Shown piece by piece: positions 18,418 to 64,000 of a DNA stretch of 64,000 nucleotides. A program made the position numbers and the translations under genes. The DNA is from a virus (Duplodnaviria > Caudoviricetes): positions 68,414 to 132,413 of the IMG/VR virus record IMGVR_UViG_3300033120_000845, one strand, 5' to 3'. Under the pieces are notes generated by a model that saw only the letters and a program-made list of their open reading frames with translations, was not told the origin of the DNA and searched no databases. Position 1 is the first letter of the stretch; each line of letters begins with the position of its first letter.

Positions 18418-18437
18418 TAAATTCATACTTTTGTCTT

Positions 18438-18614
18438 ATGGATAAAATAATGGAAACTTTAAAAGCACTCGGATTTAATGTGGAGAATAAAACTCCCGAA
18501 GAGTGCTTTTCTCTTTTAATAGAGGAATATATTCTACTTTGTCAAGAAATAGAAAAGAGTAACGAAGAACAATTTAAAAAAGAAATACAAAGACTTTTAA
18601 AACCAAATAATTAA
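18438..18614 (+). CDS. Small hypothetical protein (58 aa, below the ORF-track cutoff)
   Basis: MDKIMETLKALGFNVENK...; fills the intergenic gap; its stop overlaps the next ATG (TAATG). Confidence 0.55.
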   Translation: MDKIMETLKALGFNVENKTPEECFSLLIEEYILLCQEIEKSNEEQFKKEIQRLLKPNN

Positions 18615-21600
18615 TGGCTTGTCAAATAGTGTATGATAAACAAGGTAAAATAAAACTTGTTTTAGATAAACAGAAAAGAGAATCTAAGATTTACAATCAA
18701 TTAAAGAGTCATCCTATGATAGATGACCCACTAACAGCGTATACGAACTTTCCTGAAGATATTAAGGATGAGTCTGCGTATAATGTTATACATAAAGTTG
18801 GAGATAAATTTTACAACTCTTATAAAGAGGCTTTAAAAGCCACGAATGAAAATGGTAAGATTGAAATTGTTTTTCAAGGAGAGGGACAGACTAAAGTGTT
18901 GTCCACAATTACAAAATCTACTGATGTAGAGACAAAAGACGGTTTTATTAATTTTTATATTGAAAATAATTTAATCGCTGATAAAAGGAAAAATGGAAAA
19001 TTAACAGGGCAAGGAATTTCAAATAAAGAAAGGCTTTTTAATGCTTTAGAGATTCAAAGATTGGCAGTTTCTACATTGGGAGTGGATTCGTTTAACTTAG
19101 ACTATTATTCATTTGAAATTTCAGAACCAACTTTAGGGAAAACAAAACTGACTCTTAAAAATGGAGAAGAAGTTTTTGTATCGCCCGAAGAAATCACAAA
19201 TATTAACGATTTTAGAAATCCCGAAGAAGCAAATATAGTAAAAAACTATAAAGAGCCTGTATATCGAGATTTACCAAAACCTCAGTCACAATCTGAGGAA
19301 AGTTTGCAACTAAAATTAATGGATGTTCTTAATAACTTAGGAGTATCTGTTATGTCAATTACAGACTATACTAAAAGATATAGAATTAAAAACGGTGTTA
19401 ATCCTTCTGCAAGAGCTTTAGCTGATATTGCTAATGGTGTAATTGCTTTGGAAGAAGGTGTTGCCACTATAGAAGATTTTATTGAAGAGGTGGCTCATTT
19501 TATTGAAAGCGCAACTTCGGCAGAGAAAAAAGAAAACATCCTTAGAAATATTCATAAAACTAAGGAATATATTGAACATGCGGAGGCTTACAGAACTATT
19601 TATTCCGAAGATTATTCAGGAGAAGAATTAGAAAATATTGTGAGAAGAGAAGTTCTTGGAAAAGTGATAAAAAATTCCATTCAAGAAAACGAGCAAAGAA
19701 ACGAAACGGAAAGAAATATTCTTCAAAGAGCTTTTGATTTAATTGTAGATTTCGTAAATAGTATTACCTCCAATAATGAGCTTAAAATATATTTGAATGA
19801 TATTAACGATGCCATAGAACAAAATACTTCGGGACTAATTGACAGGAAAAACATCAACTCAATCTACACATTTTATTCTACTGCCAAAAGTCCTATTACA
19901 AAAGAAGTTTTAAGAATTATTGGACATTTGAATAATGTAAGAACAAATCTACCAAAAACAGACATAGCTTCCATTGTTAAAATAGAGCAACAAATTAATA
20001 CTTCAGAAGAGGTGTATAGTGTTGTGGCACTTTTAGATGTAATTAACCATGCTGTAAAAAAACTACAAAACGCTTTAAAAGATTCAGAAGTGAATAATAA
20101 AGATTATGCTTTCACTTTAGAAGAAACCTCTTTATATTTTGAAACTTTGAATATTGCGGAATCATTGCCAAGAATTGCAGAGGCTTTAAGGTCACAACCG
20201 TTTGAAATCGGCAAAAAAGATTTAAAAGAAGCAACTATCTCAAGATTGCAAGAGGTTAAACAAAATCTTGACACATTAAAAGCACAGAAAGAATCTATTG
20301 TAAATACCACCACTAAAAGAATTGTGGATGAATTGATGCGAGATAGTAATAATCAGCAATCAAGGGAATATTATGAAGAAGCTATTATAAGAGCAAAAAA
20401 TGATGCAACAATCTTGTCTTCAACATTTGGAACTTTAGCAAACTCCACTGATGGTATGTTAAATATTATTGGTAAATTATTAGTTTCGATGACGGGTCAG
20501 GCACATAGAAATATGTATAATGATTATCAAGATTATGTCAATCAAATGGAATCTTTAGGATTTAAAGCTAAGGATGTTGCTGAGTTTTTGGACGGAAACT
20601 ATATGATTTCTGAATTCAATTTAACAGAATTTGATAATGATAATGACAAGGATTTTATCCCTGCTTATAGAGAAATAACACAAGATAGTGAAATAACAGA
20701 TGAAGAAATTATTAAGCAAAAAAATAGCAATTCTTTAAAAATTGATAGCGATATTTTCCAACAAGTTTCTGCGCGAGCTATGGAACTTTCAGATGTCAGA
20801 GTGGAGAAAAGTAGAAAGCCCGAATTCTATGAAAAAATTGAGCAACGTTATCAAAACGCAGGAATAGAAAAAGACAGCCCCACAAGAGCATATCTCAGTG
20901 TATTCCTATCGGAAGTTAGCAAGTTTAAAAATAAAGCAACAGATGAGAACGGCAAAACAGACTACACAAAACTATCCTTACAAGAGTATGAAACTCTAAA
21001 ACAGTTACAACAAGACAGAAAACTAAAAAAGGATTATTTTGATATTACATCAGGAGAACTTAAAAAAGGATTAGAATACAAAGGGCTTGATGAAAAAGGA
21101 AAACCTATTTATACTTTAGCTGATACTAATGTTTCTGATGAGGCGCGTATTGCTTTTGAGTTAAATAAATTAGATGCCCTCACTTTAGAGGAACTTAAAC
21201 AAGGCGGTGATAGAGACAATACAAAAGCATTAAGAGATTTCAAAGATAGTTTAAAAGGACTAAGTAGAGAAGCACAAGTTAGATTTATTGAAGTGAATGC
21301 CACTTTAGGTTTTACAGAGGCTTATTATGAAGCAATTCAAGCTAAGGTTTTAAATGAAGACGGAAGCGTGTCTGACAAGCCGAGTATTCTATCTCAAATG
21401 TTAGAGCAAGGTAAGGATGAGCAAGCTAAAAGATTAGCGGAGATTAATTCTCAAATTAATACTTTACTTAAGGCTTACACAAGTAAAACAAACCCAACAG
21501 AAATTGTTGCCGATGATATTCCTGAAACAACAAAAGAATTAATCAGACAATTACATTCTGAACGCACAGCTATTATTCAAGATTTTTCGGGCGAAACATT

Positions 21601-29086: not shown

Positions 29087-29326
29087 TTAAATCTTAATTT
29101 CATTTCTATATTTTCTTATTAAATTAAATATTTCTGTTAAGTTCTCAAATTCAAATCCTTTGTTCATATATCCTACTGTGAAGTAGTGTTCAGAAGCAAA
29201 CTTCTCTTTTACTTTTTTGCCGCAAATCGTGTCTAAATACACCCAAGGATAATTGGCAAAGTATGTTGTGTCAATCCCTATTTTAAGAAGCCTATTTCTA
29301 AATATTGTTAGCTTATCCATTTTCAA
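29087..29326 (-). CDS. Hypothetical protein
   Basis: Small ORF in the - operon. Confidence 0.5.
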   Translation of the reverse strand: MKMDKLTIFRNRLLKIGIDTTYFANYPWVYLDTICGKKVKEKFASEHYFTVGYMNKGFEFENLTEIFNLIRKYRNEIKI

Positions 29327-33056: not shown

Positions 33057-33884
33057 TTAAATTTTAATGTTTTGTAAAGGGGATTGTATTTTACTAATTG
33101 TAGAATGAGAAATATGTAAATATATAGATGTGGTTTTAACAGAACTGTGACCAAGTAAGCGTTGTATCATGTTGATATCAATTCCTGCATCACACATGTG
33201 GCTTGCTGAACAATGTCTAACCAAATGTGTATAGACTCTTTTGTCTAATCCTGCCTTTGTAGCTAATTGTTTAACAACTTGTAACACACTTCTTGAAGAA
33301 TATTGTTCTGAAAATTGCCCGCCAAAAATAAAAGACTTAGTTTTAAATTCGCGGTAATATTCCTCCATTAATTTTAGTAATGTGTCGTTCAATCCCACTT
33401 GCCTGTTTTTTCCACCCTTAGCATTTAGTATATAAATAATCATTCTACTTCTATCAATATTTTCCCACCTTAAATTAATGAGTTCTGAAACACGCAAAGA
33501 ACAAGAGTATAAAAGTGCTAAAATTAACTTATGCTTCCTATTCTCACACATATCAAACATTTTTTGAATTTCCTCTACAGAGAGAATGATTGGCAAGCTT
33601 TTATCTTTCTTTGTATAAGGTATATTTTTAAACTTTTGTTTTTGATTTAAACAAATATCATAAAATAACTTTATAGCAGAATGATAGTTTCTTTGAGTAT
33701 TAGCTTTTATGCAATTGCTTAAAAAATGTTTAATGTCTTGTTCATTGATATTCTTAGGGTGGTCTTTATTAATAGTGGATAAAAACACATCAATGCAACT
33801 ACTGTAATTTTTAATACTGTTTTCTCTATATCCTCTTCGTTTCATTTCCTGAATGAAAGTTTGTTTGTGTTCAGAAGTTTTCAT
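33057..33884 (-). CDS. Tyrosine recombinase/integrase (candidate cassette integrase)
   Basis: N-terminal SAM-like domain (RRGYRENSIKNY); intact catalytic set LRVSE, AKGGKNR, HLVRH, LGH, TTSIY; no IntI-specific insertion visible before the HxxR box. Confidence 0.9.
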   Translation of the reverse strand: MKTSEHKQTFIQEMKRRGYRENSIKNYSSCIDVFLSTINKDHPKNINEQDIKHFLSNCIKANTQRNYHSAIKLFYDICLNQKQKFKNIPYTKKDKSLPIILSVEEIQKMFDMCENRKHKLILALLYSCSLRVSELINLRWENIDRSRMIIYILNAKGGKNRQVGLNDTLLKLMEEYYREFKTKSFIFGGQFSEQYSSRSVLQVVKQLATKAGLDKRVYTHLVRHCSASHMCDAGIDINMIQRLLGHSSVKTTSIYLHISHSTISKIQSPLQNIKI

Positions 33885-33886
33885 TG

Positions 33887-33944
33887 TTAAGTATTGATTT
33901 TATTAGTGTTTTAGAGTGTGTAATACATATTTATGTTAGGCGAT
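33887..33944 (+). other. attI-like primary site of cassette array 1
   Basis: 27-bp motif TTAAGTATTGATTTTATTAGTGTTTTA (33887-33913; 26/27 identical at 62895-62921), then GTT core at 33935 with no preceding hairpin; immediately upstream of the integrase start. Confidence 0.65.
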
Positions 33945-37155: not shown

Positions 37156-37287
37156 AACAGCAATTTTGCGCTATTACCGTTTTAGGCTTTGGGTTATGTT
37201 AATTTTGTATTTGTTAATATTATTTCTTAATCAATGATTTCGGCTTTCTTATCGGTAACAGTCGCAAAGTTGCAAAACGTTATGCGC
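37150..37287 (+). repeat. attC-like site 5
   Basis: GTGCATAAC-a-GCAATTTTGCGCTATTACCG...CGGTAACAGTCGCAAAGTTGC-aaaac-GTTATGCGC. Confidence 0.85.
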
Positions 37288-38301
37288 AACCTTTCGTAAT
37301 CGTTTCCATAATACGATTTTGCGCTATATCGAAATAGTTTTTATCCATTTCTATTCCAATAAATTTACGGTTAGTGTTTACGCAAGCTACTCCAGTACTA
37401 CCTGAACCCATAGTAAAATCTAAAACAGTTTCACTTTCATTTGTATATGTTTTTATTAAGTACTCCATTAAATCTAATGGTTTTTGTGTTGGATGTACCC
37501 TTAGTTTAACCCTAAAATTAAAATTAAGTATATTGGTATTTCCAAAAGTACTGTTGTAAACTTCCTCTATTTCTTTATATTCAAATAAACCTAATGGTTC
37601 TTTTAATTTATTCCACATTTCCATAGTAGGAACTTGTCCGCATTTATTATTCCCAGTATAAATACTCCACATTCCACCTCCATTTTTAGCAACTCCAAGT
37701 AGACTATGAAAATCATCTTTACCTAAACCGTATTTTAAACAAGCTTCTTTTTTATTACTTTTGCTATTTTTGGTCTTGCATTTTTAGTATTCACATTTAT
37801 CAGCTCACATATATTTGGGTGCATTTTATATTTACCAATATTCCTGCCACCTAAAACTTGTTTTCCTTTATTTATAAACAGTAATTCTCTGTGTATTAAG
37901 TTGTTTTTTAATAAATTTGGATATATAAACTCTTGGGTTTTATGTGAACCAAATATAATTAATCTGCCACCACTTCGTAATGTTCTTGAACATTCTGTTA
38001 TTACACTATTAAAAAAAATATTAGCTTCATTAAATGTTTTATTGTCCCACGATTCATTAACCATACCAATGTAAGGTGGGTCAACAATAACAGCATCAAT
38101 ACTTCCATCAGGTATTTTCTTCATCAATTCAAGACAATTTCCGTTCCACAATTCAGGCAGCGCATAACAGCGGTTTGGAGCAATTGCCGTTTCATTTTCA
38201 AATAAACTTTCTTGCATAATATCAAATTTTGTTTTCATAATTAATTTTTCGGTACGGCAACTGCACCAAGCCGTAGGCGTTATAATAAACTTAACACACA
38301 A
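37280..38301 (-). CDS. Cassette 6: beta-class N6A/N4C DNA methyltransferase split by a -1 frameshift at 37747-37753 (true start probably near 38217-38238)
   Basis: Upstream ORF has GNCLELMK..IDAVIVDPPY; downstream ORF has HPTQKP..VLDFTMGSGSTG..FIGIE; the -1 frame is open across the junction. Confidence 0.8.
38160..38285 (+). repeat. attC-like site 6
   Basis: GCGCATAAC-ag-CGGTTTGGAGCAATTGCCGT...ACGGCAACTGCACCAAGCCG-taggc-GTTATAA. Confidence 0.85.
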
Positions 38302-45568: not shown

Positions 45569-45800
45569 TTTTCAATATTTTTAATTCGTGATTCATTACA
45601 CTCAACTGACTTTCTGCCACACTTCTTAAATCAGCATTTATTTCTCTTACTAATTCTATTTCGGCGCGAATAAGATTAAAAACAACAGTTGATTTTTCCT
45701 CATCTAAAACAGAATCTAATTTCTCTTTAATTACTTCTAATCCTTTATCTAATAGTCTACAAGTTTTAGGGTATGGAAGTCTAATGTGTTCTATTTTCAT
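45558..45800 (-). CDS. Hypothetical coiled-coil protein, paralog of 50914-51144
   Basis: Shares GLEVIKEKLDSVLDE.KSTVVFNLI.AEIE and AESQLSVMN. Confidence 0.6.
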   Translation of the reverse strand: MKIEHIRLPYPKTCRLLDKGLEVIKEKLDSVLDEEKSTVVFNLIRAEIELVREINADLRSVAESQLSVMNHELKILKNGN

Positions 45801-46215
45801 TTTCTACGATTTCAATTAATTTTTCTAAACAAGCTTGACGAGCTTTTTCGTAAGTATTATAAAAAGAACTATAGAAATCTCCTAATTTTAGATTAAATCG
45901 GTATAATTCTTTTTCCACCTCATCATCATAATATTTGTACACCCAAGAATCTAAATTATATTTTTCCCTAAACCAATCAAAAGTTTGTTGAAAAAGTGGT
46001 GCTATACATATTTCAGAATCGTTTTTATAAATAACATCTAATTCCGAGTTAGTTCTCTTTTCCCAAGTAGCGTCTTGGTCATACCACGTAACTTTAGGAT
46101 TAGAGAAATGAAATCCTAAACAAGGTTCATCAAAACCTAATTCTTTAAGTTTTAAAGCTAATTCATAAGGTATAAATTCTTTTTCCATATTGTTTATTAT
46201 AATATTCGTTAGCAA
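45781..46215 (-). CDS. Bacteroidota-phage-type hypothetical protein
   Basis: FIPYELALKLKELGFDEPC...APLFQQTFDWFREKY. Confidence 0.6.
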   Translation of the reverse strand: MLTNIIINNMEKEFIPYELALKLKELGFDEPCLGFHFSNPKVTWYDQDATWEKRTNSELDVIYKNDSEICIAPLFQQTFDWFREKYNLDSWVYKYYDDEVEKELYRFNLKLGDFYSSFYNTYEKARQACLEKLIEIVENENRTH

Positions 46216-50921: not shown

Positions 50922-51144
50922 TCTTTAATTTATCATTCATTACACTTAACTGACTTTCTGCTGCTGTTCTCATGTTGGAGTTCAGTTCTCTTAGTTTTTC
51001 TATTTCCGCCGAAATAAGATTAAAAACAACAGTTGATTTTCCCTCATCCAAAACAGAATCTAACTTTTCTTTAATTACTTCTAATCCTTCATCTATTAAA
51101 GGACAAGTCATTTTAAAATCAAGTTTTACATGTTCTATTTTCAT
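50914..51144 (-). CDS. Hypothetical coiled-coil protein, paralog of 45558-45800
   Basis: Clear nucleotide and protein similarity. Confidence 0.6.
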   Translation of the reverse strand: MKIEHVKLDFKMTCPLIDEGLEVIKEKLDSVLDEGKSTVVFNLISAEIEKLRELNSNMRTAAESQLSVMNDKLKNE

Positions 51145-52842: not shown

Positions 52843-54969
52843 TTACTTAATTGGGCAAGCTCCATTGTCACATCCACCTAATTCTTCAAAGTCTTCTTCT
52901 TTCAATTCTACAGAAGTAATAGGTTTAACTTTTGAAGACATTTCTAAATACTGTGCTTCTGTAATAGGTTCAAAAGGTGCTTGTTGAAAACCATGTCCTG
53001 AGTATAATAAGAAGCTTAAAGTTTTAAAATTGTCTTTAAAATTATCTTCTAAATACTGTTTTAATACAGGTAACTCTTCTTTCTTATAATAAGCTGTAAC
53101 AGACACTGAATTATCTGACCAATTTTTCTGCATAAATTTAACCTTTTCAAGTTGCTCAAAAACAGTCATATCATCAGCAGAAATTGTTCCGTCAGGGTAT
53201 TTACAAGGAAACTCTACAACCATTGTGCTCCTATCGTCTGTCCCATCAAAATTCTTTTGAGGCTCTACGTGATACCCGTTAGCTCTACAAACATCGATTA
53301 ATGGAGACCCTGATTGCATTCTGATTCTTCTAATATAATACTGCCCTGATGTTGCGGGATGTACGCCTGAAGTACACCCTGCTAATAAAGACAGAGACCC
53401 ACTTGGCTTAACTGTTGTTAATTTAATACTTGCATTGAATCCCATAGCTTTAGAATATTCTTTATCATAAGCTCTTAAATATTTATAGCAACCATCTAAC
53501 CAACTAAGCTGTTTATCTGTACACATCATTACACCTGTAATACCAATACCCATACGCATATTCTTATGTACGATATCTTCTGTATCTTTTTGGTGACAAC
53601 TTAATGCCAGAGAGTGTTTATTAACTCTATACAACATAGTAGCTACTTTCAATAATTCTTCATACGAAGTGATATTAGGTAAGTAAATTTCAGCTAGGCA
53701 GCATGTTTCAAAACTAGCTAAAGATTGTTCCGCACCAAATTTGTTACTCTACTAATAGAGGATAAGTCATTTCTGCTTATCTCTGCAATTTCAGTTTGTT
53801 ATATTTGCAGTTCGGACTATACCACCTTCTCATTGAGAAGCCCCTTGGTAGTCTCTGAGGGCTTGCATTTCTGCCTATCCCTGCTGATTATCCTCTTCAG
53901 GACTTCCCAGCATATTCAGGGTTATTCGTAATACATCGCTGTATTAAGCCGCTAGCGTTAACGGATTGTATCCTTCCACATCAGGGTCAGGGTATTCATA
54001 TTCTCCTAATCTACCTACTTTCCTAGATAACTCTAAATTAATTAAACCGTAAGGCTCTCCTTGTTCATAAGTATCCCAAAATTCTTGAGGTAAATCTTTA
54101 ACATCTTGTACATCAATAGAATTGTTAGACATTGCTCTCCAATTAGGTACATTACCTAAATCCCATCTTTTAGCTTTTAAATATTCTAAATCATCATAAT
54201 CGCCAATAGCTATTTGAGCACTTCTTCTGATATTTCCTGCGACTACAATCATACCAATGATATTCATAATATCTAAACAGTCTATGGGTCTTAATTGCTT
54301 TCCTCTTCTCTTATCTAACACACCTTGTATTAAATCAATACCCTCTACTAAAATACTCGCTCCTGAAGAAACTCCTCCAAAGCCTTTAATTAATTCTCCT
54401 TTTCCTCTGATTAATTGAGTACTGTAAGTAAAACTTTCTCCTGAATAAAAATAAGACTTTAAAACTTTCCCTAATAATTTAACCCACCCTTCTCGTGTAT
54501 CAGGAACGATAAAATCAGCTTGTTTATCATCGAGCCTTACTATTTTTGGTTTTTTCTTTTGTAATTTAGGTAGCTTATATACGTGCTCTTTTTTAATTGA
54601 GTAACCTACCCCTGAACCCAACATAAGCATGTCCATCGCCCAAGTGAAAGGTTTAATTGGATTATCAATAACAACAAAAGCACAATTTTGTAAAGAGGGT
54701 AATCCTAATCGGTCAACTGTTTCTGTACCCAATTGCCACATAAATCTCCCCGCTACCGAGCCTTTCATATTGTGGCGCATATCCCTATAGAATTCTTTCT
54801 CTTCAGGTAATAAATTTAATTTTAATTGTTTTTCAATACCTTTTAACTCTCTTTCAACTGTGTCTGAGAATTCCTCTGTTGTTCCATCTTTTTTTGTTCT
54901 TGCATACGTCCTCTTGTAGGTAATGTAGCCGAGCTCACCCCATTTAACGGGTCTTTTTTCAATTTCCAT
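52843..54969 (-). CDS. nrdJ: Class II (adenosylcobalamin-dependent, monomeric RTPR-type) ribonucleotide reductase; exons 54969-53961 and 53735-52843
   Basis: TYKRTY, LQNCAF, GSGVG, VVAGNIRRSA; spliced NPCAEQ; TTVKPSG; DNSVSVT; C-terminal CDNGACPIK; joined length 633 aa. Confidence 0.9.
53736..53960 (-). ncRNA. Group I self-splicing intron (225 nt, no ORF)
   Basis: 5' exon ends in U, intron ends in G; P1 CCGU/GCGG; P ATGCTGGGAA, Q AATCAGCAG, R CTCAGAGACTAC, S GGTATAGTCC; removal restores AAT CCG T|GT GCG GAA (NPCAE). Confidence 0.92.
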
Positions 54970-55010
54970 TTTCTGCTTATATATTTATTTAATTTAGTTA
55001 CTTTTTTAGT

Positions 55011-55044
55011 TAAAAAACGCCCCAAAGAAATTCATCTGAGGGGC
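55011..55044 (-). terminator. Terminator-like hairpin upstream of nrdJ
   Basis: Minus strand GCCCCTCAGA...TTTGGGGC followed by GTTTTTT. Confidence 0.55.
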
Positions 55045-55180
55045 ATTATTGTTTTCTCATCTTTAAATTACTGAGAATTTGTTTTAGGAATCTCTGTTCC
55101 TTTTATTTTTTTACGGCGATGCTCCTTTGTAAAGGACTGTTCATGTCGTAGCTATCTCGGACAGCTTTTTATTTCTTATG

Positions 55181-55211
55181 CAAATATACAACTATTATTT
55201 TAATCCCACAA
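55181..55211 (-). promoter_or_regulatory. Bacteroidota-type promoter
   Basis: TTG-N20-TATATTTG. Confidence 0.7.
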
Positions 55212-55258
55212 ATAAATTAGTTCATTAAAAATATTTCTGTGGTTGTGAGGTTTTTTAT

Positions 55259-55564
55259 CTATTCCCAATTGCGATATTTACTTTTAAATTCTTTTAAAAT
55301 TTCTAAAGTTTCTTTTTGTACCTCTAACATCTCTACTATTTGAGGAAGAATTATTTGTTTTAAATCAGTATACTTCTCTAATGCTTGAGCTACAGTTGGG
55401 AAATAAAATCTCTCTTCTGCTGTGTATTCTGTTTCTAATCCTTCTTTACTAATTCTTTTTTGCGGAAAATGTTGTACTAAGCAAACCCCTCTTCCCCCGT
55501 CTGTCTTTAGATAATGAGATTTGTCTATTATAATTTTATCTGTTTTTTTAAATAAGTTGTTCAT
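55259..55564 (-). CDS. Hypothetical protein
   Basis: 101-aa ORF. Confidence 0.5.
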   Translation of the reverse strand: MNNLFKKTDKIIIDKSHYLKTDGGRGVCLVQHFPQKRISKEGLETEYTAEERFYFPTVAQALEKYTDLKQIILPQIVEMLEVQKETLEILKEFKSKYRNWE

Positions 55565-55823
55565 GTTTTGTGTATTTTATTGTTTCTGTTTCTATCCAAA
55601 AATGTTTGTGCTTTTGGTCATCATAATCGAAAATCTCACTCCTGATAAATTCTACAAAATCTAAATCAACCTCACCAAATTCATAAACTGTTAATTCAAA
55701 AGAGTCTTCATCCTCATACTTTGATAGATTTTCAATGATGTCTTTAACTAAAACTCCGTTGTGTCTTTCCATGAATTCTAAAGCGTCATAGTCGCCGTAA
55801 TTACTTAAATAGAGTACTCTCAT
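55548..55823 (-). CDS. Hypothetical protein
   Basis: Likely start MRVLYL. Confidence 0.5.
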   Translation of the reverse strand: MRVLYLSNYGDYDALEFMERHNGVLVKDIIENLSKYEDEDSFELTVYEFGEVDLDFVEFIRSEIFDYDDQKHKHFWIETETIKYTKHEQLI

Positions 55824-56376
55824 ATTTATTTTTAATTTTTTCCGCAAATAAAAAAGAAACAGAAGATAATTTACTCAAACAATAAAACGTTTTTCGTGCG
55901 CCTATACCTTAGAGCAGTAAAGTAAACTATTTTTAGAGCAACTTCTGTTTAATCTACAACTTACAAGATAGCTTCTCTTGTCAATCACTTTGTTGTCAGC
56001 TTTGTGGAGAAATGGAGCATCGACTTCCCTTACCACTTCCTGCCCTCGATATTACGCAAGCACAGTACAAATCCCCCTTTTTTATAAAACCTACCTAATT
56101 ATGCCACCAAAAATAAACACTATCATTCATAAGCTACGAACTTACAAAATCAATCTCCTACATATCAGAGCATAAGGATGTTTATTTCTAACTTAAAACT
56201 ATTACTTGGCTTGTGATGTAATATTGTAACTATTATTTACCTTTAATATCCTAGTATACCACGGAAATATTACTTGTTTCTTGTTAGTTAGATAGGTTTT
56301 GTTTTTCCCACCACATGTTTTTGAGTTTCAAACTTTTTATTACTAATTAGTTTTTTGTGGTGAGAATAGTTTTAAC

Positions 56377-56586
56377 TTATTCAAACACTTTTTTGTACAC
56401 TTCACTTATTCCTACTCCTGCAAAAAATGCTAAAACATAAACACTTATAGTAGCTAATATTTTAAATGTTGGGTCGTAAATAGACTCTCTTTTTTCAATG
56501 TATTACCAACTTTCAGGCATAAAAAACGGATAGAAAATCAATACCACTGTAAGTATTGAAAATAATAACACTTTAAATTTTTTCAT
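56377..56586 (-). pseudogene. Small two-TM membrane protein interrupted by an in-frame TAA at 56503-56505
   Basis: MKKFKVLLFSILTVVLIFYPFFMPESW*YIEKRESIYDPTFKILATISVYVLAFFAGVGISEVYKKVFE; directly after a promoter. Confidence 0.5.
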
Positions 56587-56608
56587 AGTTTTCTTTATTT
56601 TTCTTTTA

Positions 56609-56639
56609 CAAATATATAAATAATTTATTTAATGTGCAA
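56609..56639 (-). promoter_or_regulatory. Bacteroidota-type promoter
   Basis: TTGCAC start; TTG-N20-TATATTTG. Confidence 0.7.
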
Positions 56640-56651
56640 GAGAAAATTGAT

Positions 56652-57362
56652 TTATTTTTTGAAATATTTTTTATAAACAGAAAAATACTCTGCTATTTCT
56701 TTACATACAGATACTACCTCATTCCTTAAATATTCCTCCACATCCTCTTTTCTATACGGAGTTGGTATGTAGTCAATCTTCCCTGTTAATCTAAGGCAAT
56801 TTTTATCTCCTATCTGTAAATTGTTTCCTTTTCGGTCTAAGTGATTAACTTGACAACCTCCAATACTGAAACCTTCTAATTCTCTTTGATATGCATATAT
56901 ACGAGTTTGATAATATTTTTTCATGTCCCCATATTTTTCCATCATACTTTTAGAAGCTCCTGTCTTTAAATCCTCAATCCACCTTAAACCTTCACTATCA
57001 TATTCGTGGTCGCTGAATCCTTGCAAAACGCAATCTTTCAACCCGAACGGCTCTAAGTCAATCACTACTTCCGCCTCGAACTTAGAAGAATCATGTTTTA
57101 ATAAAGTGTCAATCGTTTTCATATCAAAATCTGACAAATTATCATCTTTTTCGCCGTCAGAAAAATAAGTTCCGACAAGATTTCCAAAAAAAGCAAACAT
57201 TCCACTTTTTGAAGGTATCCCTAAAAAATAACCTTGGACATATTGCTCTTTATATTCTTTAAAAGAGTTTAACTGAGAATAGCTTATTTTGTACTTATTT
57301 TTATGTTGAGGGTAATTACCTAACTCGTTTTCATATTTCTTAGGTAGCTCTATTTTTTCCAC
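56652..57362 (-). CDS. PD-(D/E)xK nuclease (RecB/Cas4-like fold)
   Basis: ISYSQL; FEAEV; QGFSD; IEDLKTG; YQTRIYAY. Confidence 0.75.
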   Translation of the reverse strand: MEKIELPKKYENELGNYPQHKNKYKISYSQLNSFKEYKEQYVQGYFLGIPSKSGMFAFFGNLVGTYFSDGEKDDNLSDFDMKTIDTLLKHDSSKFEAEVVIDLEPFGLKDCVLQGFSDHEYDSEGLRWIEDLKTGASKSMMEKYGDMKKYYQTRIYAYQRELEGFSIGGCQVNHLDRKGNNLQIGDKNCLRLTGKIDYIPTPYRKEDVEEYLRNEVVSVCKEIAEYFSVYKKYFKK

Positions 57363-58300
57363 AATTCTTCTTTTAGTTGTTCTATAATTTGGTCAATTTC
57401 TTTTTGATTAATCACTTTCCCGAAATTTGGGTCTATTTCAGCTAAAGATGCCCTAATCAAATTTAAAATAATCTCTTTATCCTTCTCACTTCCTTTCTTT
57501 TTGTCGAAAATTTTCTTAAAGGTTTCTTTTGATTCTCTTGTAATTTTTTTCACAAGAGCTATTTTCTGTAATAAAGGTAATTCAATAGCCGCTACCTCTC
57601 CTTCCAATTCCACTACATTTGAAACTACCTCTTTTAACGGTTGTTCTCCTTCTGCTTTTCTGTGGATGTTAACCATAGCTATTATTTCGTTGATAGAACT
57701 TCTGTCCAGTTCGTTTTCGCCGCCCTCAGATTTATATGTGGTATAAACATCTTCCCCATCAACAAAATCCGCAGGTAAATTATAAATATAAGCCCATTCC
57801 GCTAAAGAATTAGAGAACCATGAGCATCCCTTTAAATAAGATTGCAAGTCTAAGCAAGTTAAGCTCCAAGGCTTTTTTCCAAAATGTTGTAAATCCTTTG
57901 GATAATCGCTTAAAATGCCATTTTTAGAAGCTCTTGTTGTAATAAATGGTAGTGAGAAATCTGCGTTCCACACAACTGTCTTAAAACCTTTAAAACGGTC
58001 TTCGTTGTACAGATTTAAGAACCTTTGTATAATTTCTTTTTCGCCGCCTTTTAAAACTAAAGTAGAAATAACACCATCTTCTTTACAATACGCAATAGTA
58101 ATACTGTAAATTTTAGCGAATAAAGGATTTTTACTTGACTCTTTATAATATTTCTGATAAGTTTCTGCTTCTGTTAATGGTGTATTTGTATTAAAATCTT
58201 TACCATACTTATTTTTAAATAAAGCAAATTCTTGTGAATCTACTTTAATATCTTCCGTATTAGGAATACTTGTTATTTTAATGTATATATTTTTTTCCAT
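57350..58300 (-). CDS. PolB-type 3'-5' exonuclease-like protein, apparently lacking catalytic acidic residues
   Basis: NPLFAKIYSI..GEKEIIQRF..VVWNADFSLPFI..RA..KPW...LDL; IKITSI where FDIET is expected. Confidence 0.5.
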   Translation of the reverse strand: MEKNIYIKITSIPNTEDIKVDSQEFALFKNKYGKDFNTNTPLTEAETYQKYYKESSKNPLFAKIYSITIAYCKEDGVISTLVLKGGEKEIIQRFLNLYNEDRFKGFKTVVWNADFSLPFITTRASKNGILSDYPKDLQHFGKKPWSLTCLDLQSYLKGCSWFSNSLAEWAYIYNLPADFVDGEDVYTTYKSEGGENELDRSSINEIIAMVNIHRKAEGEQPLKEVVSNVVELEGEVAAIELPLLQKIALVKKITRESKETFKKIFDKKKGSEKDKEIILNLIRASLAEIDPNFGKVINQKEIDQIIEQLKEELWKK

Positions 58301-58302
58301 AC

Positions 58303-58713
58303 CTACAAATTTCTCGAATTTTTATATTGCTCTTTGAATTTAACTACAGCTTCTTTTAAATCTTCAGCTCTTAAAAAGCAGAGGCGCGTACTAACACCAG
58401 AAAAAGCGTGGTAATTAATGCAGTCGTCGTAAGCGAAGTTTTTTCCTAAATAAAAATAAGGGTAGTACTTTCTTTGATTGGTATTATCCCAATCACATTT
58501 AACTCCTTTGTTATAAAAGTTCACAATCATTCTCTCCACTTCTTGAAATTTTGCAAACTCTGAAACATTTTTATAAAGTTCTTCAAAAGCTCCTTCTGTA
58601 GTATTATGATACGTATAAACTTCATCCATTGGATTTTGTTTTTTAGCGTTTTCAATTAGCTCGTTTAATTCTGACAAAGAAAATTCTTTACCATTGATAT
58701 TAATTTTTTCCAT
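58303..58713 (-). CDS. DGR target protein 1 (136 aa)
   Basis: Contains VR1 encoding FAYDDCINYHAFSGVSTRLC. Confidence 0.85.
   Translation of the reverse strand: MEKININGKEFSLSELNELIENAKKQNPMDEVYTYHNTTEGAFEELYKNVSEFAKFQEVERMIVNFYNKGVKCDWDNTNQRKYYPYFYLGKNFAYDDCINYHAFSGVSTRLCFLRAEDLKEAVVKFKEQYKNSRNL
58379..58438 (-). repeat. DGR variable repeat VR1
   Basis: 10 mismatches to TR in 60 nt, all at TR adenines. Confidence 0.92.
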
Positions 58714-59645
58714 AATATTTTTCTGTTAAATTTATTGAATCACAAGCAGATAACCAGCCTTTATAAGATGGTAACGACTTAAGATTATTCCTCTTCTTTA
58801 TAAATTTTTTCTTAATTGTTTTTCTTAATAATGTATGTGTATGATAGTGTTTGAATCCTAAAAAGTCAATTCCGCGTTTTTCAACAGGAAATACTTGATA
58901 ACTTTTATTTATTTCTAAATTTAACTCTTTTAACTTAACTCTCATTTTAAATAAAACTTCGTGTAGGGACTCTTTACTGTTTGATAAAATAACTAAATCA
59001 TCGCAGTACCTGAAGTAATATCTGATTTTTAATTCTTGTTTTAAATAGTGGTCAAAATCATTTAAATATACGTTAGCTAATATTTGGCTTAATAAGTTAC
59101 CAAGAGGTAGTCCTTTAGCAGAGTCTATAATCTCGTCTAATAATTTTAAAGTCGGTTTACATTTTATTTTTCGCCTAATTTTAGTTTTTAATATTTCATT
59201 ATTTATTGAAGGATAGAATTTTTTAATGTCTATTTTTAAACAAAATTTTGTACCATCGATGTCTTTCAAAACCCTTCTTAAATTATAAGAACATTTATGA
59301 ACACCTCTTCCTTTTATCGAACTATAAGTGTCAGCAACAAATGTTGGTGTGAATATAGATTCAATTTGTAAATATATCCCCCAATGCATAATCCTGTCAG
59401 GGATAATAAGGTAACCTTGAAATTACTCTATGTTTAGGTTCAAAAATTTCAAAGTCATTATAGTGTGAAGTTTTGTATTCTCCATTAATTAATATATTAT
59501 TTAAATGTAATATATTTTGTTCTTCGTTTTCAAGATGTATTTTAACCCCTTTCTGCTTTAGTTTCCCCCTTCTTGCTCGTTTATCTGCCTGTTTTAAATT
59601 TTCTATACTAATAATCTTACTATAAATATTTCCTGTTCTTCTCAT
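58700..59645 (-). CDS. DGR reverse transcriptase, split by a +1 frameshift at 59397-59402 (joined length about 314 aa)
   Basis: EPKHRVISRLPYYP|DRIMH; KIDIKKFYPSI; GLPLGNLLSQ; YFRYCDD; IDFLGF. Confidence 0.92.
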
Positions 59646-59747
59646 ACTCTGTTTAAGAAGGTTGTTTTCGATTACTCTACTAACAACCTATTAAGGCTTC
59701 TTTTTATTTTTCACCATGTTGGTGAGGTTAATATACTTTTTAAATAA

Positions 59748-59808
59748 ACATAGGTGCGTACTAACATCAGAATTAGTGTTGTAATTATTGTAGTCGTTGT
59801 AAGCGAAG
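59748..59808 (-). repeat. DGR template repeat TR (non-coding)
   Basis: CTTCGCTTACAACGACTACAATAATTACAACACTAATTCTGATGTTAGTACGCACCTATGT, AAY-rich; hairpin TCACCA-TGT-TGGTGA at 59711-59725 between TR and RT. Confidence 0.92.
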
Positions 59809-59823
59809 GGTGCTACAACTATA

Positions 59824-60294
59824 TTAACCTTGTAACATAAATGACTTAAAAATTTTAACAAACTCTTTGTTTTTTCCTATGTATTCACATAAATATCTTG
59901 ATTTCAGACAGAGGCGCGCACTAACATCAGAATGAGCGTCGTAAAAATTGTAGTCGTAGTAAGCGAAGCCATCTTCTTGCATTTTCCACCAAATTTGATA
60001 TTTATATTCTGAAGAATCCTTCCAATCAAAGACATACTTTTCGTTTAAAGATTTCACTATAACAATAGCTTCTTGTTGACTTACAACGTGAGGAGATAAT
60101 CCAACAACAGATTGTAATAATTTTAATTGAGTTACTTCTTCATCCTCATCACCCAAGTAACTAACGGCATCGTTTAATGTTTTAATTCTTTCTGTAATAT
60201 CTTTGACTACTTCTTTAAAGGTCAGTTTACCTGTGTTTTTATCAAAACTGTCTACTTCATATCCTTGTGGGATTTCAATCTTTACTTCTTTCAT
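59824..60294 (-). CDS. DGR target protein 2 (156 aa)
   Basis: Contains VR2 encoding FAYYDYNFYDAHSDVSARLC. Confidence 0.85.
   Translation of the reverse strand: MKEVKIEIPQGYEVDSFDKNTGKLTFKEVVKDITERIKTLNDAVSYLGDEDEEVTQLKLLQSVVGLSPHVVSQQEAIVIVKSLNEKYVFDWKDSSEYKYQIWWKMQEDGFAYYDYNFYDAHSDVSARLCLKSRYLCEYIGKNKEFVKIFKSFMLQG
59908..59968 (-). repeat. DGR variable repeat VR2
   Basis: 9 mismatches to TR in 61 nt, all at TR adenines. Confidence 0.92.
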
Positions 60295-60334
60295 AATTTT
60301 TTATTTTTTTGTTTAAATACTCATTCTTCGTTTA

Positions 60335-60365
60335 CAAATATATGTATTTATATTTTAATGTGCAA
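60335..60365 (-). promoter_or_regulatory. Promoter of the DGR operon
   Basis: TTGCAC start; TTG-N20-TATATTTG. Confidence 0.7.
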
Positions 60366-60391
60366 ATTTTTTTATTCTTTTTTCGCGGAAT

Positions 60392-60676
60392 TTATTCCTC
60401 ATTTTTAAATCGCCCACAAAAATTATAAGTTTTATAGACATGTTCTAAATACCAAACAATGCCGTTCTCATCTACTCTTAGATTACGAGGTTTCTTAAGT
60501 TTTCTTGAACGTTCTATTACACCAATTCTGACCAATTCTTTCCACTGTTCAAAGCTACAATCTTCATAGTTTTCTCCGTGGCGAATTTTATATACTTCTT
60601 CTATTTGTTCGGGCGAATATCCGTATTTTTCTAATCTTTGTTTGTATTCTTCCCAAGGTTGTTTACTGCTGTTCAT
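60392..60676 (-). CDS. Hypothetical protein
   Basis: 94-aa ORF. Confidence 0.5.
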   Translation of the reverse strand: MNSSKQPWEEYKQRLEKYGYSPEQIEEVYKIRHGENYEDCSFEQWKELVRIGVIERSRKLKKPRNLRVDENGIVWYLEHVYKTYNFCGRFKNEE

Positions 60677-60818
60677 TTTCTACAATTTCAATTAATTTTT
60701 CTAAACATACTATTCTACAAAGATTTCTTGCTCATTTTCTTGCCATTCCACAGGGGCTTTTTATTTATTTCTGCAATTTGTTCTTTTGTTAATTCCATGA
60801 TTTTCTTATTTTCTTTAG

Positions 60819-60849
60819 CAAATATATATCTTTATTTTTAATTGTGCAA
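60819..60849 (-). promoter_or_regulatory. Bacteroidota-type promoter
   Basis: TTGCAC start; TTG-N20-TATATTTG. Confidence 0.7.
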
Positions 60850-60962
60850 ATTATTTTTGTAATTTATAATGATTTTAGATAAGTTATTTTATTCACTTTT
60901 AAACATGACAATAAACTTCGACTTTCATCGAAGAATTTTTATTATTACCTACTATAGGGAGC

Positions 60963-61853
60963 TTACTGCTCAGATAAGAAATGGCAAAAATCAAACTGTA
61001 AGTAGTCTAACTTTTCTACTTTCTCTTTTACAGGGAAGTTTGTTGTTGTGAATTCGGGGATTAACTCTCTGAACAGTTTACCTTCAGAATACATTAAAGA
61101 AATATCCACATTGAATTTTAATTCTCTGTATTCTTTATATGTGCATTTTCTTAAGTATTTAAACTTTCTTCTTGTTTTTATTATTCCCGCGCCAACCAAC
61201 TTCTTCTTCCAGTAGAAACCGTTAGATTTAGTTTTTGTTTCACCAAATTTTAATTTAGAAAAACCATAATTACTCATTACTGTTTTAGCATTAAATGAAC
61301 TTCTATCTTCAGCATACGTTAAATCACTATCATTCCAAGAGTCTTTAAAATTAATCTCTTTTTGTGACAGTCTGTATCCTTTAGATATTCTCCCTATTAC
61401 TTTATTCTGCTCGTAACGTCTATCTATTCGATTTTTTTGTATTTGTTCCGCGCGAATTATCCTCACTCTAAAACTGAATAATTTAGTTTCGGAAAAAGTA
61501 CCTACTTCGATTGGAACTCTTTTTGGTCTTCTTAGACCGCAATATCTCTTATTAATTTTATTAACTCCCACCAAAACAAAATTACCAACAGAATCAAAAC
61601 GGCACAATTCTAATTTCTGCAACTCTTTAATGTATTTTCTTAAAGTAGTTACAGACAGATTAGTTTTATCTTTTAATGTGTGGTAAATGTTTCTGTTTTT
61701 CTCTTTGTAGATTTTTATTGCGGATTTTTTCTTCGTGATATTTTCTATTCTCTTAGCAAACTTTAGCATAGCGTAAACCGCCACCAAACTATCCCCGCCT
61801 TCGGAGAAAAGTTCAGCATAAAGTTTAGAATTTATGTTAATGTAGTTTTGCAT
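60963..61853 (-). CDS. Basic helix-turn-helix DNA-binding protein
   Basis: LKDKTNLSVTTLRKYIKELQKLEL HTH-like segment; start moved to MQNYIN. Confidence 0.55.
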   Translation of the reverse strand: MQNYININSKLYAELFSEGGDSLVAVYAMLKFAKRIENITKKKSAIKIYKEKNRNIYHTLKDKTNLSVTTLRKYIKELQKLELCRFDSVGNFVLVGVNKINKRYCGLRRPKRVPIEVGTFSETKLFSFRVRIIRAEQIQKNRIDRRYEQNKVIGRISKGYRLSQKEINFKDSWNDSDLTYAEDRSSFNAKTVMSNYGFSKLKFGETKTKSNGFYWKKKLVGAGIIKTRRKFKYLRKCTYKEYRELKFNVDISLMYSEGKLFRELIPEFTTTNFPVKEKVEKLDYLQFDFCHFLSEQ

Positions 61854-62038
61854 AGTAAAAATAGCTAAAAATAAAAAACCCTTATAAACGAAAGTTGAGA
61901 CCAAGAGCCACCACGCATCTTAAAATCTCAACCTTACAATTTATAAGAGTAATCTTATTTATATTTGTCGATTTTTTAGTGGTGGATAAAATCTATACTT
62001 CCAATAAGTAGCGAAACGGATTTTCCCATTTCTGACCG

Positions 62039-62069
62039 CAAATATACAATACATACTTCAATTAAACAA
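62039..62069 (-). promoter_or_regulatory. Bacteroidota-type promoter
   Basis: TTG-N20-TATATTTG. Confidence 0.65.
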
Positions 62070-62211
62070 ATTGGTTAGTTTTATATAAATAATTATTTTT
62101 TAAAAATGTCTTTCCACGAATCGTTTAATGTTATAAACCACGCAATTAATACCATTCCTCCCACTATAATAGCTGCTATTTGAGCACCTTCTGATAAATT
62201 TTCCATAATTT

Positions 62212-62610
62212 TTAATTGATAGGGTTAGCTAATTGCATGACAGAGAAATTTAAATCTACAAATCTCACACCGTATATTTCTTCTTTAAATACTTGAAGAT
62301 ATATTTCCTCCCCTGATTTATCATCTAAAAGATGTAATTCTGCGTATTCTAAACCGTTTTTTGTTTTGTCATATTTTGTTTCCGCTATTTGTGTTAAATT
62401 ATAGACAGTATTTGCTATATAAAACTTAACTTTATCGTTTTTGTTTCCATAGTTAAAAAAGATTCTTGTTTCTAAGTTTTTCCATTCAGTTTTTTCTCCC
62501 GCCGAATTAGTAAACATCGCTATTGTGTAACTTTTTACAAATTGCTGTTTTTCTTGTGCCCGCGCGAAAAAAGTTAAAAACAGAAGGACTAATAAGATTA
62601 ATTTTTTCAT
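62212..62610 (-). CDS. Exported protein with signal peptide
   Basis: MKKLILLVLLFLTFFARA-Q. Confidence 0.6.
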   Translation of the reverse strand: MKKLILLVLLFLTFFARAQEKQQFVKSYTIAMFTNSAGEKTEWKNLETRIFFNYGNKNDKVKFYIANTVYNLTQIAETKYDKTKNGLEYAELHLLDDKSGEEIYLQVFKEEIYGVRFVDLNFSVMQLANPIN

Positions 62611-62630
62611 AATATTTGGTTTTGTGTTTT

Positions 62631-62879
62631 TTAAAAAGGACATTCATTTTCTCCAAATGTGCTTACTGTTATATTTATTTCTTTTGTTAATTGTTTTAAC
62701 TTATTTATAGTCATTTTCCGCCGCGAAATATTAAAAACAAAGGTAGAAGAAAAACAATACATTGGAATCTCTTTCAAACTATAACTTCTTCTGTTTTTAG
62801 TATAAGGAAGTCTGTATAGTTTCTTTTTATACCAACCATAAGGTGTTCCATTATATTCAAAACCATATTTAAAAATCAT
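62631..62879 (-). CDS. Hypothetical basic protein at the position equivalent to the integrase in array 1
   Basis: 82 aa; start lies just downstream (- strand) of the 27-bp motif. Confidence 0.5.
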   Translation of the reverse strand: MIFKYGFEYNGTPYGWYKKKLYRLPYTKNRRSYSLKEIPMYCFSSTFVFNISRRKMTINKLKQLTKEINITVSTFGENECPF

Positions 62880-62894
62880 ACTATTGTGGTAATT

Positions 62895-62956
62895 TTAAGT
62901 GTTGATTTTATTAGTGTTTTACCACATTGGTTGCGTCAATGAGCGAGTTAAACGAT
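62895..62956 (+). other. attI-like site of cassette array 2
   Basis: TTAAGTGTTGATTTTATTAGTGTTTTA (62895-62921), then GTTAAACGAT at 62947. Confidence 0.6.
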
Positions 62957-62967
62957 AGTTTTTCAAA

Positions 62968-63399
62968 CTATACGGATAAACCTAATTGATTAATAGCATT
63001 AGTGTTTAATTCAAACTCAAAATCGAATCCTAATAAATCCTCAACAAGTTCATTTTTGCTTATCCAAAATCTTTCTTCGCCATCACTATCTTTGTATGTA
63101 GTTTCGAACATATTTTCCCCAACTTCAAAATCTGTGAAACAATCAAAGAAAACGCTTCCTTTTGCTTCATTATAAACCCCTAATTCGGCTTTATAGTCAA
63201 ATTCAGTGGAAAAATGGATTCTTTCAGGTTCTTCCAAAATTCTTTCCGATTCATCTGTTACAGCAAACATTTTAAGTGTTATAGGCTGTTTTAAAAAATT
63301 AGCGTAATTACTAATCTTTGTAAGCATTTTTACCTCGTCATAAGGTGGATTTTCATTTAATAAATTCAAACAAAAATCTGTCATTGGAATTAGTTTCAT
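62968..63399 (-). CDS. Cassette hypothetical protein (Bacteroidota-phage type)
   Basis: MKLIPMTDF...NYANFLKQP..LKMF. Confidence 0.65.
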   Translation of the reverse strand: MKLIPMTDFCLNLLNENPPYDEVKMLTKISNYANFLKQPITLKMFAVTDESERILEEPERIHFSTEFDYKAELGVYNEAKGSVFFDCFTDFEVGENMFETTYKDSDGEERFWISKNELVEDLLGFDFEFELNTNAINQLGLSV

Positions 63400-63422
63400 A
63401 ATCTATTTGTGTTAATTAAACC

Positions 63423-63522
63423 ATCGTTTAACAAAGGTTTGGCGCAATAAAGCCAACACCTTCTGATTAATATTCTTGTTTTTCTAAGGCTTTACTTCGC
63501 CAAGCCTCTGGACGTTATAAGC
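63423..63522 (+). repeat. attC-like site 7
   Basis: ATCGTTTAAC-aa-AGGTTTGGCGCAATAAAGCC...GGCTTTACTTCGCCAAGCCT-ctggac-GTTATAAGC. Confidence 0.85.
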
Positions 63523-64000
63523 AAGCTGCTACGTTCCTGCTCCGAATGAAAGTTCCCCATTGTTCAGCCATAGCTTTTGCCACCCCACTAAAAGTTTTTG
63601 AGCTTTCCTTTTGGCTTATATTTACAAATTGGTATTTCTGTCCTCGTTTCTTCCCTCCTGTATTGCTCGGCAAATACGGCTTATAGTTGCTCTTAATATC
63701 AGTCGGCTTTAATAGTGGCAAATTTTTCAACCACAATAATGTTCGCTTACTAAATTCGTGTCCATATTCGTAGGGCTGTATCGCTTGGTCTTGTTTTGGC
63801 AATTCAACTACTTTTAATGGTGTTGGATTTTCAATAGCAATATATTCAATCGGTGCATTTAGTAGTTGTAAAAACAAGTCCTTAGCTTCCATTGCTTTTG
63901 CGTATCTGTCTTGGCACAAATTTCCTGCCGTTGGATACATCCATCTTGCTCCAGCCCTACTCATATAAGTACAAGGTGGGTGTGCAATCATCATATCATA
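63515..64000 (-). CDS. Cassette gene: C5-cytosine DNA methyltransferase-like protein (5'-partial)
   Basis: DMMIAHPPCTY, IAIENP, IQPYEYGH..SKRTLLWL, SKTFSGVAKAMAEQWG; stop within the GTTA core. Confidence 0.75.
   Translation of the reverse strand, partial: YDMMIAHPPCTYMSRAGARWMYPTAGNLCQDRYAKAMEAKDLFLQLLNAPIEYIAIENPTPLKVVELPKQDQAIQPYEYGHEFSKRTLLWLKNLPLLKPTDIKSNYKPYLPSNTGGKKRGQKYQFVNISQKESSKTFSGVAKAMAEQWGTFIRSRNVAACL

Follow-up and report, generated by a model that had tools for sequence, protein, structure and literature searches.

Positions 62895–64000 of the analysed window (the whole stretch of DNA under analysis, 64,000 nucleotides long) are best explained as the insertion-site end of an integron-like cassette array, here called array 2, which a phage recombinase would serve in trans. 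We put the probability of this reading at about 0.6. The boundaries of the cassettes, their mobility, the structure of their hairpin sites, the conservation of the insertion site attI2 and of a 27-bp motif within it, and the presence of a single recombinase gene are shown by the data presented below.

The window covers the final 64 kb of a linear 132,413-bp IMG/VR record that is 92% complete and has 31% G+C. The record encodes giant virion proteins, a DNA polymerase, a DnaB-type helicase and a ribonucleotide reductase, promoter-like TAnnTTTG boxes are repeated on the minus strand of the window, and the nearest cultured-phage kin of its recombinase are found in Polaribacter and Cellulophaga phages (29–35% identity). 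Because of the gene content, the TAnnTTTG boxes and the recombinase kin, we infer that the source is probably a large tailed phage with a Bacteroidota host. As a check of the assembly, an independent Logan contig is 100% identical to the window across 53883–63495. Elsewhere the window holds a diversity-generating retroelement (58303–60365) with a 229-aa reverse transcriptase (RVT_1), adjoined by a 66-nt repeat in three copies (58373, 59743 and 59903; 77–100% identity). The early or replication gene region has a 185-nt direct repeat (45580–45764 and 50924–51108, 82% identical) and a 36-nt repeat (45796–45831 and 60672–60707, 97% identical).

Position 62947 is a true cassette junction. The crossover core of attI2, G/TTAAAC (62947–62953, plus strand; the slash marks the breakpoint here and below), reads GTTAAACGAT over ten bases from 62947, the exact reverse complement of 63423–63432. 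It is exactly here that homology to Logan contig L021, from another metagenome run, stops. The first cassette of array 2, consisting of a body and its own hairpin site (62948–63514, plus strand, with bounds set by integron convention), is 99.8% identical over 571 nt to L021:2951–3521. In L021 this copy sits between two other cassettes in a different array, and the homology is bounded exactly by TAA/C cores. The cassette carries a 143-aa gene on the minus strand (62968–63399), inverted with respect to the top strand of the site, whose product belongs to phrog_12560, of unknown function; a protein atlas search with this protein was uninformative. The crossover-proximal half of attI2 (62922–62946, plus strand) forms no hairpin and includes a GTTGCGT direct repeat at 62930. 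This repeat was considered as the true crossover and rejected, as it has no inverse partner downstream.

The second cassette begins at 63515 with a DNA methyltransferase gene on the minus strand (63515–64000, phrog_757), the stop codon of which is the TTA of the core. The gene is truncated by the contig end; the contig stops at window position 64000, so the far end of this cassette lies outside the window. A 93% identical copy of the methyltransferase cassette is found at the other end of the record (record 61–548), where its exact start is G/TTATAAGC and the hairpin arm before it is a different one. The cassette also turns up nearly unchanged in a wastewater, a freshwater and a soil run, unrelated to one another, on contigs whose left flanks differ and all depart at 63512–63514; one freshwater left flank reads TTACATATAATA/GTTA, an integrase-type insertion site. 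The cassettes are thus discrete mobile units with boundaries at the G/TT core, where the homology breakpoints of both the first cassette and the methyltransferase cassette fall. The contigs that show cassette context come from these three runs; roughly 20 further runs, which contain about a quarter of the sequence words, are left out of the evidence. No recombination joints were reported in the sequencing-run data, which consist of contigs only and are uninformative on excised circles or rare variants.

Each cassette also carries a mark of its own site. Its first eight bases, counted from GTT, and the opening box of its hairpin are exact inverses of each other, a match seen in six cassettes of array 1, one of array 2 and five at the record start. 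Because of the homology breakpoints, the right-hand hairpin belongs to the cassette body to its left; it follows from the same breakpoints that the plus strand is the top strand of the sites and that the cargo genes are inverted. Some cassettes are common to arrays of the attI1 type, which adjoin an integrase gene, and of the attI2 type. With regard to cargo, the sixth cassette of array 1 (window 37280–38301) encodes an N6/N4 DNA methyltransferase that is split into a 188-aa N-terminal and a 130-aa C-terminal ORF, and a fragment of about 100 aa resembling the N-terminal GTP-binding motif of EF-Tu is encoded by a cassette in two arrays (L004 1230–1556 and L021 2600–2954).

The attC-like hairpin site of the first cassette spans 97 nt from its TAAC box to its GTTA box (63425–63521, plus strand) and folds better than all 200 shuffles on both strands, with z of about –2.8 to –3.0. 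Hairpin sites in array 1 are longer (126–138 nt). Some sites are closely similar to each other: 63429–63524 is 96% identical to record 1986–2081, and two array 1 sites are 73–76% identical. We aligned 22 sites from this record and four related contigs. The TAAC and GTTA boxes are invariant in all 22, and between them lies a variable stem of about 15 bp in which 92% of stem cells are paired, compared to 33–43% in slid-partner controls. Covariation is seen in 14 of the 15 variable stem pairs, a score that none of 500 shuffles reaches. The unpaired spacers are asymmetric, with 2 nt on the TAAC side and 6–7 nt on the GTTA side. Rfam has no known family that matches these sites.

A covariance model built from the 22 sites, R1, scores the array 2 site at 72.9 bits and finds 16 sites plus one partial site on the record. 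Five of these and the partial one belong to the record start, one stands alone at about 15.5 kb, an inverted array at 17.8–19.7 kb holds three, array 1 six and array 2 one. Within an array all hairpin sites share one orientation. The default filters of Infernal missed some known sites, so negative results with R1 are weak. The solo site (record 15527–15658) and the inverted third array (record 17777–19733, with GTTG/CAAC cores, the slash here separating the two core types) lie outside the window, and neither has a 27-bp motif nearby.

Array 2 is not small and very probably goes on at the opposite contig end. The last bases of the contig fall in sequence that both methyltransferase copies have in identical form, and a freshwater contig goes beyond 63997 with the sequence of the record-start copy. 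The simplest reading, and a likely one, is that the genome is circular or permuted and that the assembly broke at the repeated cassette. In that case array 2 and the record-start array are likely a single array of at least seven cassettes, which would probably finish near record position 2749, beside a TAnnTTTG box at about 2830. The window itself holds one complete array 2 site; if the contig start is continuous with the contig end, the array has six and a partial one. On contig data alone, the two methyltransferase copies may be either tandem cassettes or strain variants. These results bear on three claims of the initial annotation, which had been made from sequence alone. The complete cassette that it placed at 62947–63513, with a hairpin shorter than those of array 1, held and is refined to 62948–63514, with a hairpin of 97 nt against 126–138 nt. 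The start of another cassette also held (63515, the DNA methyltransferase). Its prediction that a GCTTATAAC core and a hairpin would follow the methyltransferase is met at the far end of the 93% identical record-start copy (record 743–843), not within the window.

The 27-bp motif at 62895–62921 (plus strand) forms the distal module of attI2 and aligns with 15 other insertion sites. Its other copy (33887–33913) lies in attI1 (33887–33941, plus strand), the insertion site of array 1, which continues with a TACATAT-type proximal half and a G/TTAGGC core at 33935. The two copies are identical at 26 of 27 positions. The identity between the two loci is limited to these 27 bp; the flanks are unrelated and do not align. 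A third copy is lacking from the window and from the full 132,413-bp record when up to three mismatches are allowed, and the chance expectation in the window is zero in 100 shuffles. From the end of the motif to the G of GTT the distance is 22 in array 1 (33913 to 33935) and 26 in array 2 (62921 to 62947). Measured as spacing between motif and crossover, it is about 21–22 bp in the integrase-adjacent attI1 type and 25 bp in two attI2 sites. The motif at 62895–62921 holds two direct core-like octamers, at 62896 and 62911 with a 15-bp spacing, similar to the distal part of the crossover core. They recall DR1 and DR2, the accessory direct repeats of the attI1 site of class 1 integrons. This copy is also bracketed by an 8-bp inverted repeat (62885–62892 and 62919–62926).

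The motif region can be aligned over 16 insertion sites, both integrase-adjacent and integrase-less (the second window copy and the 15 others), and at least 14 related phage contigs have the motif conserved in their insertion sites. The contigs with the motif in attI1 encode recombinases of 40–86% identity. Its 8-mer core is not enriched genome-wide (17 copies against about 11 expected). The motif is not a general signal of this genome and is likely a feature of the insertion site, although we have no binding data. The two copies within this genome differ at a single position, whereas attI1 sites of relatives with 80–86% identical recombinases have diverged far more; the near-identity may reflect constraint by a genome-specific factor, or homogenization. 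A scan for the proximal half of attI1 gave 73 stretches. About two dozen of these are true sites beside hairpin arrays, and a recombinase with 40–80% identity adjoins them wherever the contig reaches far enough. One identical attI1 in closely related contigs is followed by at least four different first cassettes. An exact 20-mer of the motif matched eight stretches (six distinct), and only in contigs L009 and L011 is the match linked to an array. The other matches had no R1 site where this was searched (L008 and L012 were left out), and their number is no more than chance would give for an AT-rich 20-mer. On the 24-kb contig L011 the exact 20-mer is accompanied by an attI1 core and a single cassette, and no recombinase is encoded there. 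In most of the aligned sites the motif is located 0–25 nt upstream of a start codon, in gene direction.

The attI2 site is conserved in a relative, G002, whose recombinase is 85–86% identical. G002 has a second array about 11 kb from its recombinase gene on the same contig, with the same AAC/TCG junction, a flank that can be aligned with 62890–62946, and the motif in a shortened form. The junction is followed by a gene for a 91-aa protein that is 41% identical to the product of an 82-aa gene (62631–62879, minus strand) located downstream of array 2 in gene direction, and in the same position. The first cassette at the G002 junction differs from that of array 2. The junction is the same with another first cassette, and therefore the same point has received different cassettes in two lineages; position 62947 is a conserved primary insertion point. 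The proximal half of attI2 differs from that of attI1 and is nevertheless conserved in the G002 orthologue. We consider it likely that attI2 is modular, with a locus-specific proximal 25 bp and a distal 27-bp module in common with integrase-adjacent attI1. Compared with shuffles, neither insertion-site region folds into a hairpin.

The 82-aa gene occupies the place held by the recombinase gene in array 1 and does not encode a recombinase. Its product has no significant family match, and an exact look-up returned only the Logan contig that already matches this window. A search of IMG/VR for close relatives of this gene and of its 313-aa neighbour found nothing. Distant homologues of the 82-aa protein on contigs L099–L102 have no clear arrays upstream, so no empty attI2 site was found among them, and a scan with the attI2 pattern matched G002 alone. 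Separately, a GC-rich TTCGCGCG-like word occurs at window positions 32175, 32504, 32690, 32968, 62560 and 62717. These words lie in the signal-peptide region of small minus-strand genes, downstream of both the recombinase and the 82-aa genes, and in at least one of them, a 143-aa gene at 62212–62643, the word encodes an FFARA-type segment.

The only tyrosine recombinase of the record, and the only match to PF00589, is encoded at 33057–33884 on the minus strand (275 aa), 29 kb from array 2, and no recombinase gene lies nearer to that array. It matches PF00589 at 1.3e-36 and PF13495 at 6.6e-14, and its catalytic domain is intact. The XerA model NF040815 scores 206.8 bits, just below its cut-off of 220, and the integron-integrase models score far lower (TIGR02249, 165 bits against a cut-off of 265; NF011946, 83 against 435), so that the protein is below all NCBIfam cut-offs. 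The best solved relatives are archaeal XerA (4A8E and 5HXY), with VchIntIA also close. The catalytic region aligns with XerA and IntI; compared to VchIntIA (2A3V), the phage protein has 20 residues where IntI has 62 and is about 42 residues shorter at the integron-specific insertion. By its catalytic domain, its N-terminal SAM-like domain and its best matches (XerA, XerD) the protein is a member of the Xer family, which does not imply a role in chromosome dimer resolution. Its own family comprises more than 2,000 protein clusters at E < 1e-30; the best 120 clusters are of 242–279 aa, on contigs of up to 132 kb, and are called XerD where named. Because of its constant position next to attI1 and because some cassettes are common to attI1- and attI2-type arrays, this recombinase probably acts on all arrays. 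The assignment is inferred, as there are no data on binding or on action in trans. In addition, with a linear record that is 92% complete, it remains possible that a second recombinase is encoded in the missing part.

Several further claims of the initial annotation concern the motif and its enzyme. The recurrence of the motif at 26 of 27 positions, the spacings of 22 and 26 to the GTT cores and the presence of an 82-aa gene in the integrase position were all confirmed. That the motif is part of the primary integration site is supported by the 16-site alignment and by G002, in the absence of binding data. That one recombinase serves several arrays in trans is supported as an inference, by the single recombinase gene and by the cassettes common to both types of site. 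The claims would have been refuted by a motif that is common or unlinked to arrays, and this is not the case, the motif being unique in the record and its core not enriched. No empty attI2 site was found near the distant homologues of the 82-aa gene; the G002 site is occupied by a different first cassette.

The mechanism that we propose is the following. Cassettes are cut and joined at G/TT, each with an imperfect hairpin of 97–138 nt running from a TAAC to a GTTA box, and with cargo genes on the opposite strand, some of which have their stop codon in the core. Array 2 is anchored at attI2 without a recombinase gene beside it. The single Xer-like recombinase (33057–33884) is predicted to bind the core together with the shared module's core-like repeats, and to insert and excise folded cassette sites at attI1, attI2 and the other arrays in trans. 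Beyond the contig break, array 2 would probably go on as the five-site array of the contig start. A TAnnTTTG-type promoter at the far end of the array probably drives its expression in the direction of attI2. The acting enzyme, its binding to the motif and the direction of expression are inferred.

Some observations weigh against this mechanism. No experiment and no read-level joint shows recombination by this enzyme, and the recombinase lacks the IntI insertion. In IntI, this specific insertion contacts extrahelical bases of attC. The cultured Polaribacter phage P12002L keeps two arrays and has no tyrosine recombinase, so cassettes can persist, and may move, without a resident enzyme. The proximal halves of attI1 and attI2 differ, and one enzyme would have to accept both. 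Finally, the motif is just upstream of start codons in most sites and could be an expression signal. A rival explanation, which remains possible, takes up this last point: the motif would be a promoter, an operator or an A-rich 5′ leader for the gene after each array, recurring since the recombinase and 82-aa genes are controlled alike and having no role in recombination, and the cassettes would still be mobile. In its favour, nearly all aligned sites have a start codon 0–25 nt downstream of the motif, and two hairpin loops of array 1 contain start codons with weaker look-alikes 19–20 nt upstream. The A-rich character of Bacteroidota leaders, which have no Shine-Dalgarno sequence, also counts for this rival. 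Against it, the distance to the crossover is kept (21–22 bp; 25 bp in attI2) while the distance to the gene varies: in L011 the next ORF is 64 nt away, and one group of relatives has 16 nt more between the motif and the integrase start. The motif is absent from all other genes of the record and does not match the TAnnTTTG promoter of the window, and its two direct repeats resemble the crossover core.

The remaining alternatives fit the data less well. Array 2 could be a passive store without a working insertion site, similar to the integrase-less attC clusters of bacteria (CALINs), with cassettes moved by enzymes of the host or of co-infecting phages and with the motif left over from an old duplication of the attI1 region. 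The lack of a recombinase beside array 2 and the two arrays kept by P12002L without any such enzyme fit this explanation, and bacterial IntI1 can recombine phage attC sites (Qi et al. 2023, PMC9892861). However, G002 keeps the junction and its flank but has another first cassette there, a sign that this exact point was used repeatedly; the 99.8% identity of the first cassette to a copy elsewhere indicates recent exchange; and motif copies matching at 26 of 27 positions, compared to the drifted attI1 of relatives, point to constraint or homogenization rather than decay. We consider the passive store unlikely. Less likely still is that homologous recombination between conserved hairpin regions shuffles the cassettes with no site-specific enzyme, a process that has reportedly been proposed in similar form for the promoter/stem-loop modules of T4-type phages. 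Some sites are indeed near-identical between unrelated cassettes (96%, and 73–76% for the array 1 pair), but the breakpoints fall at the G/TT core even where the adjoining hairpin arms are unrelated. Homologous recombination also does not predict that the first 8–10 nt of a cassette are inverse to its own hairpin box; the inverse cassette starts are the signature of circular excision and reinsertion. An assembly artefact, in which a chimeric contig end would make array 2 foreign to the genome that encodes the recombinase, is all but ruled out. The contig does end in a repeated cassette, and IMG/VR and Logan contigs break at repeated sites. Nevertheless, the complete identity of the independent Logan contig described above extends into array 2, and G002 has its recombinase and the orthologous attI2 array on one contig.

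The system is similar to a classical integron in several respects. The cassettes are bounded by G/TTRRRY cores and start with the inverse of the RYYYAAC-type box of their own imperfect hairpin, array 1 has a hairpin-free primary site with extra core-like direct repeats beside a recombinase gene, and the enzyme is a tyrosine recombinase of the Xer/IntI branch. There are also clear differences. The phage recombinase has no IntI-specific insertion and is under the integron-integrase cut-offs, the cargo genes are inverted with respect to the site and several of them start inside the hairpin loop, the site spacers are asymmetric (2 nt against 6–7 nt), no promoter is evident at the insertion site and TAnnTTTG promoters are located at the far ends of the arrays, and the genome has at least two different insertion sites, one of them without a recombinase gene. 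Judged by the definition of an integron used by IntegronFinder, the attC-like sites with conserved structure and variable sequence, the G/TT crossover and the occurrence of cassettes in different contexts qualify. An IntI-specific domain, an attI beside the integrase (for array 2) and co-oriented genes read from an attI promoter are not present. A CALIN is defined by at least two attC sites that have no integron integrase in the neighbouring few kb. Array 2 may or may not fit this definition, depending on whether it extends beyond its one complete site in the window; its nearest recombinase is 29 kb away, and unlike a CALIN as defined it has a recognizable conserved primary site.

Clusters of attC sites in phages have been described before. 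Qi et al. 2023 (PMC9892861) reported integrase-less attC clusters with methyltransferase cargo in virulent phages including P12002L, and found that bacterial IntI1 recombines several of the phage attC sites, which were treated as components of bacterial integrons. No phage recombinase, phage insertion site or repeated leader was described in that study. The arrays of P12002L are similar to those of the present phage in lacking an adjacent integrase, in carrying methyltransferase and Mom-like cargo and in having genes opposite to the site orientation. In P12002L (L098), a cultured lytic phage, we find a 77-bp leader twice, at 29172–29248 and 37198–37274, with 97% identity; each copy ends in G/TTA and precedes methyltransferase or Mom-like cassettes. 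This repeated leader before two arrays parallels the repeated 27-bp motif. P12002L differs in having shorter sites, and R1 misses its methyltransferase clusters, with one weak hit in P12002L. It has no tyrosine recombinase homologue, and the present phage encodes one. R1 also found no sites upstream of the integrase of Polaribacter phage Freya_10; the records of Freya_1 to Freya_10 differ by up to 5 kb upstream of the integrase.

Two systems based on Xer enzymes offer further parallels. In CTX phage, folded single-stranded DNA is recombined by host XerC/D at dif, bringing the whole genome into the chromosome. By analogy, a Xer-type enzyme without the IntI insertion could here pair a folded hairpin with a double-stranded site, with the inferred difference that small cassettes would move within and between phage genomes by a phage enzyme. 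The pdif sites of Acinetobacter plasmids, acted on by XerC/D, are 28-bp double-stranded sites in alternating orientation. Small gene modules bounded by Xer-type sites in many contexts are a feature in common with the phage cassettes, but the 97–138-nt hairpins in uniform orientation do not conform to the pdif pattern of 28 bp, with two 11-bp arms, a 6-bp spacer and alternating orientation. Integrons are defined by one integrase and one adjacent primary site. In the literature searched as full text we found no description of a phage platform with several insertion sites; attC clusters in phages are already published, and such a platform is not. The system is an integron-kind variant, and not a member of the family defined by IntI.

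A bolder reading, on which we see about as much to favour as to doubt when its parts are taken jointly, is that a widespread family of phages operates an integron of its own, independent of IntI. Several dispersed arrays in one genome would be serviced in trans by a short Xer-like recombinase through a shared distal module and locus-specific cores, anti-restriction and other cassettes would be traded among relatives across wastewater, freshwater and soil, and the recombination hairpin would double as the start region of the inverted cargo genes. Two insertion sites that share one module and differ in the other offer a handle on the function of accessory sites. If the reading is true, the principle of the integron evolved or survives without an IntI-specific domain, on a platform that is split across the genome. 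It would explain the rapid exchange of methyltransferases, Mom-like genes and other probable counter-defence genes among large lytic phages, and the published phage attC clusters would be parts of a phage-owned system rather than debris of bacterial integrons.
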